From Escherichia coli (GTDB taxonomy: Bacteria; Pseudomonadota; Gammaproteobacteria; Enterobacterales; Enterobacteriaceae), in the NCBI RefSeq assembly GCF_003019035.1, contig NZ_CP027447.1: a DNA stretch of 64,000 bases; one strand, 5' to 3'. The position numbers and the translations under genes were made by a program. The notes beneath the pieces are model-generated. The model saw only the letters and a program-made list of their open reading frames with translations. It had not been told where the DNA came from and ran no database searches. Shown here piece after piece: positions 46,399 through 50,415 of this stretch (positions are counted from its first letter, which is position 1; every line of letters begins with the position of its first letter).

Positions 46399-47454
46399 AT
46401 GCGTAAAATCATTCATGTGGATATGGACTGCTTTTTCGCAGCGGTGGAGATGCGCGACAATCCTGCCCTGCGCGATATCCCTATTGCTATTGGCGGCAGC
46501 CGCGAACGTCGGGGGGTGATCAGCACCGCCAATTATCCCGCGCGTAAATTTGGCGTACGTAGCGCTATGCCGACAGGGATGGCACTCAAATTATGCCCAC
46601 ATCTCACGCTGCTTCCAGGGCGCTTTGACGCCTACAAAGAAGCCTCAAATCATATCCGCGAAATTTTCTCGCGCTATACCTCGCGCATTGAACCGTTATC
46701 ACTGGATGAAGCCTATCTCGACGTCACCGATAGTGTGCATTGCCACGGTTCTGCGACCCTCATCGCCAAGGAAATCCGTCAGACGATCTTTAACGAGCTG
46801 CAACTGACGGCATCTGCGGGCGTTGCGCCGGTAAAGTTTCTCGCCAAAATTGCTTCCGACATGAATAAACCCAACGGTCAGTTTGTGATTACGCCGGCAG
46901 AAGTTCCGGCATTTCTGCAAACCTTACCGCTGGCAAAAATTCCCGGCGTCGGCAAAGTCTCGGCGGCAAAACTGGAAGCGATGGGGCTGCGGACCTGCGG
47001 TGATGTGCAAAAGTGTGATCTGGTGACTCTGCTCAAACGTTTTGGCAAATTTGGCCGCATTTTGTGGGAGCGTAGTCAGGGGATTGACGAGCGCGACGTT
47101 AACAGTGAACGGTTGCGAAAATCCGTCGGCGTGGAACGCACGATGGCGGAAGATATTCATCACTGGTCTGAATGTGAAGCGATTATCGAGCGGCTGTATC
47201 CTGAACTTGAACGCCGTCTGGCAAAGGTAAAACCTGATTTACTGATTGCTCGCCAGGGGGTGAAATTAAAGTTTGATGATTTTCAGCAAACCACTCAGGA
47301 GCACGTCTGGCCGCGGCTGAATAAAGCTGATCTAATCGCCACCGCGCGTAAAACCTGGGATGAACGTCGCGGCGGGCGCGGTGTGCGTCTGGTGGGGCTG
47401 CATGTGACGTTACTTGACCCTCAAATGGAAAGACAACTGGTGCTGGGATTATGA
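46399..47454 (+). CDS. dinB: DNA polymerase IV (Y-family translesion polymerase)
   Basis: 351-aa ORF beginning [22 protein letters not shown]... Confidence 0.95.
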
Positions 47455-47903
47455 ATAACATACAAATAAGAAACTATCAGCCTTGCGATTTTCAGCAACT
47501 ATGCGCTATTTTCATTAGAGCAGTTACGATGACCGCCAGTCAGCACTATTCTCCACAGCAAATTGCCGCCTGGGCGCAGATTGACGAATCTCGCTGGAAA
47601 GATAAACTCGCGAAATCACAAGTGCGGGTTGCAGTCATTAATGCACAACCGGTTGGTTTTATTTCCCGCATTGAACATTATATCGATATGTTATTTGTTG
47701 ACCCGGAATACACCCGCCGTGGGGTTGCCAGCGCTTTGTTAAAACCTTTGATTAAGTCTGAATCCGAACTTACGGTGGACGCCAGCATAACCGCAAAGCC
47801 CTTTTTTGAACGTTATGGTTTTCAGACAGTTAAGCAGCAGCGCGTTGAATGCCGGGGAGCGTGGTTTATTAATTTTTATATGCGTTATAAACCGCAACAT
47901 TAA
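47451..47903 (+). CDS. yafP: GNAT family N-acetyltransferase
   Basis: 150-aa ORF overlapping the dinB stop by 4 nt. Confidence 0.85.
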
Positions 47904-47980
47904 ATCCAGCTTGCAATGAAAATAACGCCCGCCTAGTATGTGTGCGTTTTCTTATTCCACAAACTGCAAGGAGGTAAATC

Positions 47981-48028
47981 ATGACAAATCCTTTATCAAT
48001 GACTCTTTGCAGACCTTTCCAGGATTAA
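47981..48028 (+). CDS. Possible 15-codon upstream ORF / leader peptide ahead of rtcB2-prfH
   Basis: ATG preceded by strong SD AAGGAGGT with 7-nt spacing; MTNPLSMTLCRPFQD. Confidence 0.3.
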   Translation: MTNPLSMTLCRPFQD

Positions 48029-48081
48029 TTCTTTTTTTCTTGCCCTGGATTCGTCTGCCATTTCCTGATTTTTATTCATAA

Positions 48082-49233
48082 ATGGAATGGTACATGGGCA
48101 AATATATTCGTCCCTTATCCGATGCGGTATTTACCATCGCATCTGATGACCTGTGGATCGAGAGTTTAGCGATCCAACAATTACACACCACGGCAAATTT
48201 ACCCAACATGCAACGCGTAGTAGGGATGCCAGATTTACATCCCGGACGCGGCTATCCGATTGGCGCAGCGTTCTTCTCCGTAGGCCGTTTTTACCCGGCA
48301 CTGGTCGGCAATGATATCGGCTGCGGTATGGCGCTATGGCAAACAGATATTTTCGCGCGCAAATACAACGCCGATAAGTTTGAAAAGCGATTATCTGCGC
48401 TGGATGACGTTGCTGAAGAAAGCTGGCTGGAGGAAAACCTGCCGTCAGCGTTAGCACAGCATCCGTGGCGCAGCTCGCTGGGTTCCATCGGTGGCGGAAA
48501 CCACTTCGCAGAACTGCAACAAGTTGATCAAATTATCGACGCTGAACTGTTTGCACTGACAGGTCTGGATGCGCAGCATCTGCAACTGCTGGTTCATAGC
48601 GGCTCGAGGGGGCTGGGGCAGTCTATTTTACAGCGGCATATTGCCTCGTTTTCGCATCATGGTTTGCCTGAAGGCAGTGACGACGCGCTACGGTATATTG
48701 CGGAACATGACGATGCGCTGGCGTTTGCGCGTATTAATCGCCAGATGATCGCTTTGCGCATAATGCAACAGGTTAAGGCCACCGGAAGTCCTGTTCTGGA
48801 TGTGGCGCATAACTTTGTTAGCGCCTGTCAAATCGGCGATCAACAGGGCTGGTTGCATCGTAAAGGTGCCACGCCGGATGACAACGGTCTGGTGATTATT
48901 CCCGGTTCACGCGGTGATTACTCCTGGCTGGTTAAACCTGTTGCGAACGAAAAAACACTCCACTCGCTGGCGCATGGGGCAGGGCGTAAATGGGGGCGCA
49001 CCGAGTGTAAAGGGCGTCTGGCAGCGAAATACACGGCGACGCAACTCTCGCGTACTGAACTTGGCAGTCGGGTAATTTGTCGCGATAAACAACTCATCTT
49101 TGAAGAAGCGCCACAAGCCTATAAATCGGCTGAAAGCGTGGTGCAATGTCTGGTGCAGGCCGGTTTAATTATTCCTGTCGCGCGGCTGCGTCCGGTGCTA
49201 ACGCTCAAAAACAATGGAGGGAAAAAAGGATGA
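48082..49233 (+). CDS. rtcB2: RtcB-family RNA ligase paralogue (full-length counterpart of the K-12 ykfJ pseudogene)
   Basis: RtcB motifs (...[19 protein letters not shown]...[11 protein letters not shown]...); stop overlaps the prfH start. Confidence 0.85.
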
Positions 49234-49844
49234 TCTTGCTACAACTCTCCTCAGCTCAGGGGCCGGAAGAATGTTGCCTGGCAGTGAAAAAGGCGCTGGA
49301 CAGGTTGATTAAAGAAGCTACCCGACAAGACGTCGCGGTAACGGTGCTGGAAACAGAAACGGGTCGCTACTCTGACACACTGCGTTCGGCGCTGATTTCT
49401 CTGGATGGCGATAACGCATGGGCTCTAAGCGAAAGCTGGTGTGGCACTATCCAGTGGATTTGTCCGAGTCCGTATCGGCCTCATCATGGGCGCAAAAACT
49501 GGTTTCTGGGCATTGGGCGTTTTACCGCTGATGAGCAGGAACAATCCGACGCGATCCGTTATGAGACGCTGCGTTCGTCGGGGCCGGGCGGTCAACATGT
49601 CAATAAAACCGACTCGGCGGTACGCGCCACGCATCTGGCATCCGGTATTAGCGTGAAGGTTCAGTCAGAGCGCAGTCAGCATGCTAACAAACGGCTGGCG
49701 CGATTACTGATTGCCTGGAAGCTGGAACAACAGCAACAGGAAAATAGCGCGGCGCTGAAATCGCAGCGGCGAATGTTCCATCATCAAATTGAACGTGGCA
49801 ATCCGCGACGGATATTTACCGGGATGGCTTTTGTTGCTGTGTAA
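49230..49844 (+). CDS. prfH: Peptide chain release factor homologue PrfH (GGQ-domain protein)
   Basis: 204-aa ORF with GGQ motif (...[17 protein letters not shown]...); translationally coupled to rtcB2. Confidence 0.85.
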
Positions 49845-49905
49845 TTGAGGAATGTCTCCCGCCGTTTTCTATATGAAAGCGGCGGGCAAAACGAAAGGAA
49901 TCGTC

Positions 49906-50415
49906 ATGTTTATCGGTCATCTTCCGGCTGGTTATTTAATAACTTGTACTTTAGTGAAACGCTTGCCACTGATTGCTCGTCATGCGCGCTGGGCGATGGT
50001 TATTGGCTTAGTTGGGGCCATTGCGCCCGATTTTGATCTTTTCTGGTGCTATCTGGTTGATAACGGGCAACGCCATCATCATCTTTACCCGTCTCATTGG
50101 CCATTATTATGGTTTGCTCTGCTGGCGGCGACATTAGTTTGGGCCGCAATTGCGAAGAATAAACTTCCGGCGTGGTTGGGCGTGGTGTTTTGCCTGAATG
50201 GTATCGTGCATTTATTACTCGATACGCTGGTCGGTGATATCTGGTGGTTGATGCCTTTCGTTAACCAACCCTTTGCACTCTTTCATATTACGGCGGTACA
50301 TCATCCGTGGTGGCTCAATTTTTTATTACACTGGTCGTTTTTACTTGAACTGGCATTAGTGGTTGCCGCCATTGCCATGTGGTACAGGCGTAATGCCAAA
50401 ATGGTAAATGCATGA
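49906..50415 (+). CDS. Membrane-bound metal-dependent hydrolase family protein (YdjM/DUF457-like)
   Basis: 170-aa polytopic ORF beginning MFIGHLPAGYL... with His-rich segments; AAAGGAA RBS. Confidence 0.65.
   Translation: MFIGHLPAGYLITCTLVKRLPLIARHARWAMVIGLVGAIAPDFDLFWCYLVDNGQRHHHLYPSHWPLLWFALLAATLVWAAIAKNKLPAWLGVVFCLNGIVHLLLDTLVGDIWWLMPFVNQPFALFHITAVHHPWWLNFLLHWSFLLELALVVAAIAMWYRRNAKMVNA

Follow-up and report, generated by a model that had tools for sequence, protein, structure and literature searches.

Background

What controls a bacterial operon for ribosome repair? We addressed this question at one locus of Escherichia coli, in a stretch of 64,000 nucleotides from contig NZ_CP027447.1 (RefSeq assembly GCF_003019035.1). 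This whole stretch is called the window, and positions count from its first letter. Within it, the genes rtcB2 and prfH are preceded by a short upstream open reading frame (uORF) that is unannotated in RefSeq E. coli records, including that of MG1655. The RtcB2 and PrfH proteins of E. coli ATCC 25922 protect against 16S rRNA cleavage by colicin E3 or CdiA-CT (PMC9223846, PMC9304027), and the pair has been described as a ribosome rescue and repair module (Tian et al. 2022, PMC9304027; Maviza et al. 2022, PMC9223846). The rtcB2-prfH papers that we searched for regulatory terms do not describe control of the native operon, and mention no promoter, leader or upstream open reading frame (ORF) belonging to it.

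We propose that the uORF is a translated leader peptide gene that controls rtcB2-prfH by means of a three-helix switch in the leader RNA, and we estimate the probability of this explanation at roughly two in three. A previous reading of the DNA, made from the sequence alone, had suggested that the uORF could be a translation-sensing leader for a ribosome repair and rescue module. This suggestion is now supported by conservation of the uORF, by covarying helices that reach the ribosome-binding site (RBS) of rtcB2, and by orthology to PA5471.1, a leader peptide of Pseudomonas aeruginosa.

Results and discussion

The rtcB2-prfH pair and its leader ORF

The features that define the locus are as follows.

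47968 to 47975, + strand: Shine-Dalgarno (SD) sequence of the uORF, AAGGAGGT, 5 nt before the ATG at 47981
47981 to 48028, + strand: uORF (leader ORF), 15 codons plus TAA (48026-48028), encoding the peptide MTNPLSMTLCRPFQD
48084 to 48096, + strand: rtcB2 initiation region, with SD-like GGAAUGG at 48084-48090 and AUG at 48094-48096; it is also the 3' arm of helix P3
48094 to 49233, + strand: rtcB2, intact, 379 amino acids, PrfH-coupled RNA ligase of the RtcB family
49230 to 49844, + strand: prfH, release factor H, 204 amino acids, GGQ motif intact

The rtcB2 product matches NCBIfam models TIGR03073 (release_rtcB; 622 bits) and NF007153 (642 bits) over positions 1-377, and its HGAGR nucleotidyl-histidine motif is present (as ...LAHGAGRKW...). 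PrfH matches TIGR03072 over the full model (1-200 of 200; 330 bits); it is full-length, carries GGQ at residues 120-122 and lacks release factor (RF) domain 1, as expected of release factor H. The corresponding Pfam families are RtcB and RF-1. In K-12, rtcB2 is reduced to an N-terminal fragment (ykfJ) and prfH to a C-terminal fragment. The rtcB2 TGA overlaps the prfH ATG in the sequence ATGA (49230-49233), and in the other loci examined rtcB likewise directly precedes prfH, with stop and start overlapping or adjacent. By these gene features, the window pair is a predicted member of the RtcB2-PrfH rescue and repair module. The sequence-only reading had described both genes as full-length and as truncated in K-12, the GGQ motif as intact, and the stop of rtcB2 as overlapping the start of prfH; each of these descriptions is borne out by the model matches, the K-12 fragments, the translation and the ATGA.

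It had also noted a 15-codon ORF with a strong SD upstream of rtcB2, which we find exactly so; in MG1655 the ATG of this ORF is at about 253239 (+ strand). The arrangement AAGGAGGT-N5-ATG occurs once in the 64 kb, where 0.02 occurrences are expected, and at least once in 2 of 100 shuffles. The distance of the uORF from rtcB2 must be revised: the 53 bp originally given separate the uORF stop from position 48082, where the first ATG in frame lies. RefSeq places the rtcB2 start at 48094; this start is shared among genera and agrees with the NCBIfam model. With it the gap is 65 nt, and the uORF SD begins 126 nt upstream of rtcB2.

Conservation of the leader in other rtcB-prfH loci

Other rtcB-prfH loci were collected from species-representative genomes, contigs that encode RtcB2 homologues and came from a protein search, plasmids and metagenomes. 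A scan of genome contigs with a single protein yielded 8 loci only. The metagenome pattern GCAAAGGRG-N25-45-TTTGCRG-N35-65-CYGCC was too loose (118 of its 120 matches have no rtcB downstream), and contributed two leaders, L046 and L078.

A recognizably homologous leader occurs in 19 of the 25 other loci examined, a sample that is small and partly related. These leaders span four orders of Gamma- and Betaproteobacteria, Enterobacterales among them. They occur in Escherichia species, Klebsiella, Citrobacter, Salmonella, Intestinirhabdus, Kosakonia, Cronobacter, Entomohabitans, Limnobaculum, Proteus, two Pseudomonas, Tahibacter and Ralstonia, on one IncC plasmid, and in three metagenome or read-assembly contigs. 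The conservation of the uORF in other rtcB2-prfH loci, which the sequence-only reading had offered as the check on its idea, is thus established: an SD-led uORF lies in the same place in 19 of them. The leader accompanies rtcB2 into unrelated genomic neighborhoods and onto plasmids, and therefore is not a 3' feature of the upstream gene yafP. In Novosphingobium the SD directly precedes rtcB and the uORF is absent, and no uORF was found at the Skermanella rtcB-prfH locus. Shinella and Methylosinus have unrelated uORFs, of 13-14 codons.

Among E. coli genomes the region hardly varies (5,405 of 5,426 have a match with at least 95% identity), and the evidence that the ORF did not arise by chance is the comparison between genera. 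All 19 aligned leaders have an SD of the form AGGAG or AGGGG located 7-10 nt from the ATG. The uORF is 15 codons long in all Enterobacterales and 13-14 codons elsewhere, with 18 codons in one further contig. Its frame contains no stop in 255 codons, compared with 16 and 6 stops in 236 codons of the other two frames, and its own stop is UAA in 17 of the 19. Codons 2-8 diverge freely without insertions or deletions, which do occur in the adjacent noncoding loops.

The peptide itself is not conserved among the leaders, except where codons coincide with the helices described below. In most leaders a nearly invariant nucleotide core, CUUUGCAG(A/G), encodes L-C-R. The conserved motif CUUUGCAGG is read in another frame in two lineages, the IncC plasmid (leader MQNTSTSFAGLVR) and contig L146 (leader MQHVTLQSTNRFAGIFWG), where the core nucleotides lie one frame over and encode F-A-G. 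This change of frame over a conserved core speaks against both an arrest peptide and a functional micropeptide. In every leader, even those with a changed frame, the uORF stop lies 9-15 nt past the basal arm of helix P2. To judge from these alignments, what is conserved is the RNA and its being translated, and not the peptide.

Three helices link the leader ORF to the rtcB2 start

The leader RNA can form three helices, with arms as follows.

47964 to 47973, + strand: P1 5' arm, CUGCAAGGAG, overlapping the uORF SD
48003 to 48012, + strand: P1 3' arm, CUCUUUGCAG, in uORF codons 8-11, holding the CUUUGCAG motif
48009 to 48023, + strand: P2 5' arm, GCAGAC (48009-48014) and CCAGG (48019-48023), in uORF codons 10-15
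48044 to 48058, + strand: P2 3' arm, CCUGG (48044-48048) and GUCUGC (48053-48058)
48058 to 48065, + strand: anti-SD CCAUUUCC, the P3 5' arm, abutting the P2 3' arm and pairing with 48084-48090

P2 has the clearest covariation. Its six basal base pairs are canonical in 19 of 19 leaders, with double changes at three positions: an A-U pair replaced by G-C in Proteus, another A-U replaced by G-C in six leaders, and C-G replaced by U-A in Entomohabitans. The compensated arms read GCGGAC/GUCCGC in Proteus, GCAGGC/GCCUGC in Limnobaculum and others, and GCAGAU/AUCUGC in Entomohabitans. In a MAFFT alignment, 91.9% of P2 cells are paired, compared with at most 48% when the partners are slid; double-change cells number 11, versus 4.9 ± 2.0 in shuffles (0 of 500), and the covariation score is 0.218 versus 0.168 (2 of 500). 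The consensus structure calculated by RNAalifold is P2.

P1 is a stable duplex (-15.3 kcal/mol for 47964-47973 with 48003-48012 in E. coli; -10 to -17 kcal/mol in 19 of 19 leaders), and its 3' arm is always the best partner of the SD arm within the same leader. P3 duplexes of -7 to -13.6 kcal/mol form in 18 of the 19 leaders, and the partners match by type: GGAAUGG occurs with CCAU(n)UCC, and GGAUUGG with CCA(C)AUCC or CCAAU(U)CC. Ralstonia and Tahibacter have other sequences that retain the pairing. Arms from the same leader pair better than permuted partners (-9.4 versus -8.2 kcal/mol, p~0.001).

The helices are in competition: GCAG is claimed by both P1 and P2, and (G)UCUGCC by both P2 and an extended P3. 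When P2 is open, GGGCAA (48096-48101) can pair with UUGCCC (48040-48045). Large insertions are confined to the loops of helices. For example, the Intestinirhabdus leader (L011) has an insertion of about 175 nt in the P2 loop. A 127-bp palindromic element is present in K-12 and many other E. coli strains, some of which have an annotated, intact RtcB ligase; it lies in the P3 loop, between the anti-SD and the rtcB2 SD, at the equivalent of position ~48075 (2696-2822 of the K-12 locus, L001; similarly L003, L005 and L008). Shorter copies occupy the same spot in K. spallanzanii and in Escherichia sp. L005. We take these elements to be of the enterobacterial repetitive intergenic consensus (ERIC) or intergenic repeat unit (IRU) type, an assignment based on the ERIC1R and ERIC2 primer sequences.

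No Rfam family matches the leader; a hit to STnc350 on the minus strand has 21.8 bits, compared with a gathering threshold of 60. Upstream of the Salmonella leader (L010, 1680-1803, minus strand) is a weak match to V_AS5 (39.9 bits, gathering threshold 96), which looks more like an ERIC-like repeat than a true member of that family. Two further elements were considered and dropped: a second anti-SD, UUAUUCCA, in the 5' untranslated region (UTR), which is not conserved, and a CAGGA:UCCUG hairpin with a U-tract as an E. coli terminator, which has only 5 bp and is not conserved.

Codon 11 of the uORF (48011-48013) is the rare arginine codon AGA, and most other leaders have AGG. This codon is fixed by virtue of its place in the GCAG(A/G) core, which serves both P1 and P2, and it could also slow the ribosome at the entry to the P2 arm.

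Orthology to the PA5471.1 leader of Pseudomonas

In P. aeruginosa, a leader peptide of 13 residues, PA5471.1, lies ahead of the operon armZ (PA5471)-PA5470 (PMC12057347, PMC13041342, PMC3884212). The MexXY literature describes ArmZ as an RtcB-like ligase of the PRK09588 cluster, and PA5470 as prfH. PRK09588 is an NCBIfam model matched by rtcB2 of the window. ArmZ and E. coli RtcB2 align over 375 amino acids with no gap and 60% identity, and PA5470 shares 62% identity with PrfH.

The leaders are also alike. That of P. aeruginosa (L023) reads MIQFSTLCRLRLA, in which Q3 and F4 agree with the numbering in the literature. In common with the leader of E. coli, it has the SD context GCAAAGGAGG (GCAA(A)GGAGG), the core CCCUUUGCAGGC (L-C-R) and the 3' arm GGUCUGCC (GUCUGCC), followed by the start region AUGGAUUGG-N3-AUGGGCAA. 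Intermediates bridge the two, namely Pseudomonas sp. YH-1 (MQALITLCRSRLA), Limnobaculum and Proteus. These shared motifs and the orthologous downstream genes identify the E. coli uORF as the orthologue of PA5471.1.

Published genetic results bear on the E. coli leader by analogy. Impaired translation of PA5471.1 induces the armZ operon (PMC12057347, PMC13041342, PMC3884212), and the reported inducers are ribosome-targeting antibiotics and defects in suhB, cca and fmt/folD (PMC12057347, PMC13041342, PMC3884212, PMC3516279). Expression of armZ is constitutive with an amber codon at leader position 3, with deletion of the leader, or with a clinical 7-nt deletion of nucleotides 16-22; expression does not rise with the missense changes Q3K or F4L (PMC12057347, PMC13041342, PMC3884212). 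Mapped onto L023, nucleotides 16-22 are ACCCUUU, in the P1 3' arm. The K-12 rtcB2 remnant ykfJ is reportedly inducible by 4-azaleucine (PMC3516279). By analogy, complete translation of the leader would repress the operon, because the early amber codon, the leader deletion and the deletion of nucleotides 16-22 are all constitutive in Pseudomonas. Since the leaders do not share a peptide sequence, the sensed signal is probably a general impairment of translation and not arrest by a particular peptide.

The P. aeruginosa leader folds no better than shuffles (z=0.16), and this folding does not recover the published segments 1-4.

A model for the leader switch

We propose the following mechanism. 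The rtcB2-prfH mRNA would be transcribed from a promoter of its own and carry the leader in its 5' part. When translation is healthy, a ribosome that reaches the uORF stop would unwind the P2 5' arm, which then lies in its mRNA channel. With P2 open, the freed P2 3' arm and the anti-SD would together clamp the rtcB2 site, in an extended P3 and through UUGCCC:GGGCAA pairing, while P1, re-forming behind each ribosome, would compete with P2 and keep rtcB2-prfH off. When translation is impaired (for example, by damaged 16S rRNA, antibiotics or starved tRNAs), a ribosome would be stuck at the SD or the early codons, or would stop short of the distal codons. P1 would then be held open, P2 could form and sequester the arm that extends P3, and the rtcB2 site would open more easily. 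rtcB2 would be translated, and prfH would follow through translational coupling. Such a sensor would read the progress of the ribosome, and not a specific nascent peptide.

To estimate the energetics, we calculated by constrained ensemble folding the cost of opening the rtcB2 region from -16 to +5, as the mean of 17 leaders. The mean cost is 11.9 kcal/mol in the free leader (12.0 in E. coli) and 12.2 kcal/mol with a ribosome at the uORF stop (11.9 in E. coli). It falls to 10.4 kcal/mol with a ribosome on early uORF codons (7.9 in E. coli) and to 8.9 kcal/mol with P2 enforced (7.0 in E. coli); the site is cheaper to open with P2 enforced than in the free leader in 17 of 17 leaders. These folding models, in which P3 occludes the RBS and is an alternative to the leader-ORF helix P2, describe the arrangement expected of a translational attenuator. 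We infer which conformer is ON, that the output in E. coli is translational, and that the switch responds to colicin E3-type damage.

Several observations weigh against this mechanism. The thermodynamic effects are modest and not uniform: in K. oxytoca and an Enterobacteriaceae metagenome-assembled genome, P2 gives no gain over a ribosome at the stop. The equilibrium of the ribosome-free leader looks OFF-like in silico. Covariation of P1 is undetectable, as its arms are too conserved (p=0.09), and the alignment used to count pairs had long loops trimmed in 9 sequences and the 3' arm of Proteus misplaced by MAFFT. The P3 anti-SD pairing is missing from P. aeruginosa (-3.6 kcal/mol), whose published model relies on terminators in a 212-nt spacer, so its output step may differ. 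P3 pairing might be dispensable, given that many strains have ERIC insertions in its loop. A scan limited to intrinsic terminators predicts none in the E. coli leader, which leaves room for Rho-dependent polarity. The PA5471.1 mutants M1T and C8opal of Morita et al. (2009) are reportedly constitutive, so that loss of the start codon is said to leave the operon constitutively ON. We found in the literature no data on expression of the E. coli leader, whether from ribosome profiling (Ribo-seq) or from reporters; the peptide string is in no paper found, and supplements of acid-stress Ribo-seq studies contain no match to it.

A wider version of the model is tentative, and we think it rather unlikely in full. 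Here, the switch would close a feedback loop specific to ribosome damage: ribosomes with a cleaved decoding center would load at the strong SD of the uORF and stall in its early codons, P1 would be held open, P2 would form and rtcB2-prfH would come on; PrfH would release these ribosomes, RtcB2 would religate the 16S rRNA, and the switch would reset. ArmZ/PA5471.1 would then be a recent co-option of an old riboregulator found throughout Proteobacteria. If this version is true, the leader of E. coli naturally reports, in vivo, on ribosomes that are damaged or slow.

Alternative explanations

The same leader sensor might act in E. coli on transcription elongation, through Rho-dependent or intrinsic termination, with RBS sequestration as a secondary effect. 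We consider this possible but unlikely. It agrees with the published Pseudomonas model, which is transcriptional attenuation with terminators in a 212-nt spacer (PMC12057347, PMC13041342). Past the uORF stop, the E. coli leader is C/U-rich, G-poor and untranslated for 65 nt, and non-enteric leaders have an extra GC-rich hairpin in the P2 loop that is sometimes followed by a U-rich stretch (for example, in Tahibacter). However, no terminator-like site is predicted at 47900-48100, a result that is weak, as the same scan is also blank in the P. aeruginosa spacer. The covarying helix P3 ends exactly on the rtcB2 SD and AUG in 18 of 19 leaders, as translational control predicts, and elsewhere in the literature the mechanism in Pseudomonas is termed "translational attenuation" (PMC3575510, PMC3884212).

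The leader could instead act purely as a folded RNA, for instance by binding a protein or a ligand or as an RNA thermometer; translation of the uORF would then play no part, and the ORF would be incidental. The retention of nucleotide motifs and helices rather than of a peptide, with CUUUGCAGG in another frame in two lineages, is what this explanation predicts, and a structural-entropy screen did place the K-12 intergenic region among riboswitch-like candidates (PMC4448311). It is nonetheless improbable. The ATG, a strong SD at fixed spacing, an uninterrupted frame (0 stops in 255 codons) and the placement of the stop are kept in every leader, and in Pseudomonas a nonsense codon in the leader alters expression, whereas missense changes Q3K and F4L do not. 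No Rfam family matches, either.

Still less probable is a trans-acting micropeptide that binds, for example, RtcB2, PrfH or the ribosome. Most leaders do keep L-C-R, but its codons are the CUUUGCAG core common to P1 and P2, the IncC and L146 leaders encode F-A-G in its place, and other positions vary freely. Least credible of all is an element that regulates nothing, be it an ORF that by chance adjoins a strong SD-like sequence or the terminator region of yafP. One occurrence of AAGGAGGT-N5-ATG in 64 kb is no more than mildly unusual, but the comparative evidence speaks against chance, and the element follows rtcB2, and not yafP, into other contexts.

Two more specific ideas were also dropped. 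The leader shows no similarity to the colicin E3 cleavage site of 16S rRNA that would suggest mimicry, and a tnaC-like stall at the stop codon does not fit final residues that vary and are never proline.

Promoter and 5' UTR

One further feature lies upstream of the leader.

47911 to 47939, + strand: putative sigma-70 promoter, with -35 TTGCAA (47911-47916), a 17-nt spacer and -10 TAGTAT (47934-47939), followed by a GC-rich discriminator

A promoter-like arrangement, TTGCAA/TTGCGC-N17-TAnTAT/TAGGAT, is kept from Escherichia to Klebsiella, Citrobacter and P. aeruginosa. In our consensus scan the E. coli copy scores 8/12, with a threshold of 9/12, and so was not called. Transcription would start about 7 nt past TAGTAT, near 47946. 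The GC-rich stretch after the -10 is GTGTGCG in the window (within the region 47940-47967) and ACGCGCAC in other genera, and in every genus the 5' UTR as far as the uORF SD is rich in C and U, with hardly any G. These stretches could represent a discriminator of the stringent type, or a site bound by Rho or S1.

Neighboring genes and variant loci

The gene order in the window is lafU-dinB-yafP-[intergenic]-rtcB2-prfH-ydjM-like-pepD. The dinB stop overlaps the yafP start (47451-47454), and the yafN-yafO toxin-antitoxin pair, which in K-12 lies between dinB and yafP, is absent from this strain. Between prfH and pepD is a 169-amino acid ORF of the YdjM inner-membrane family (49906-50415, + strand; Pfam PF04307, 35 bits); in K-12 records, no gene is annotated in the 56 bp that separate prfH from pepD. 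The stretch that separates the YdjM-family ORF from prfH holds a 7-bp inverted repeat, CCCGCCG...CGGCGGG (49859-49886).

The IncC plasmid of the survey is K. pneumoniae pKpnB4_3 (L021). At 880-2749 it carries a diverged rtcB-prfH pair (PrfH is 44% identical) with a homologous leader, adjoining sul1 on a conjugative multiresistance plasmid. A PrfH match is present in eight Klebsiella plasmid records, and an E. coli plasmid shows an equal match of 43.6%. In Intestinirhabdus (L011, 3137-3812), prfH is apparently split into ORFs of 144 and 61 amino acids, and may be a pseudogene.

Implications

If the proposed mechanism is correct, the repair operon gains a concrete and testable means of induction: ribosome inhibitors and ribotoxins are predicted to induce rtcB2-prfH in Enterobacterales. 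Plasmid constructs used so far, which lack the leader, would bypass the native control. The analysis defines an unannotated, widely conserved three-helix leader RNA that has no Rfam family, and suggests that the Pseudomonas attenuator that induces MexXY ancestrally called up ribosome repair. It also joins the literatures on ArmZ and on RtcB2-PrfH, which apparently do not cite each other. Our literature search found no paper that names ArmZ together with RtcB2 or colicin E3, and a 2026 paper on PrfH structure mentions neither Pseudomonas nor PA5470.

Comparison with known regulatory systems

Like the erm and cat attenuators (ermC, ermB, cat86 and cmlA), the rtcB2 leader has an SD-led ORF over alternative hairpins, and perturbed translation would induce by exposing the RBS. 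In the erm and cat leaders, arrest is specific to the drug and the peptide, and the stalled ribosome melts a first hairpin to free the RBS. In contrast, the peptide of the rtcB2 leader is not conserved, its sensor is apparently generic, and its ribosome-sensitive helix, P2, seems to be activating. No conserved arrest motif of the kind known from SecM, TnaC, ErmCL or SpeFL was found among the leaders.

The trp, his and pheA attenuators and tnaC resemble the rtcB2 leader in that the position of a ribosome on a leader ORF selects between alternative RNA folds. The rtcB2 leader differs from these in having no run of regulatory codons, no intrinsic terminator, and no conserved arrest peptide or proline-stop context; its stop follows varied residues.

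Regulation of prfB by a +1 frameshift, and of arfA by RNase III and tmRNA-linked truncation, provide examples of rescue or termination factors set by the defect that they correct. Their mechanisms are unrelated to that of the rtcB2 leader, and feedback by PrfH on its own leader is a hypothesis. E. coli rtcBA, which encodes RtcB1, is another RtcB-family ligase operon induced by damage to the translation apparatus. It relies on sigma-54 and the transcription activator RtcR, whereas rtcB2 would rely on a cis-acting leader peptide; no RtcR-like regulator gene adjoins rtcB2 in the window.

The closest relative is PA5471.1 (Morita et al. 2009, J Bacteriol 191:4966; reviewed in PMC12057347), with orthologous downstream genes, the same SD context, L-C-R core, 3' arm and start region, and a similar promoter layout. 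In Pseudomonas, impaired translation of the leader derepresses the operon, and by analogy the same would hold in E. coli. The two leaders differ in length (15 codons in E. coli and 13 in PA5471.1) and in spacer (65 nt and 212 nt, respectively). The E. coli leader has no terminator-bearing insert and has the covarying anti-SD:SD helix P3, which P. aeruginosa lacks. The enterobacterial leader appears to be a compact variant of the PA5471.1 type that acts by RBS sequestration. E. coli also lacks the MexZ/MexXY target, which leaves the genes for ribosome repair and rescue themselves as the output. The leader of E. coli is an unannotated leader peptide of the PA5471.1 type, with a different output module.

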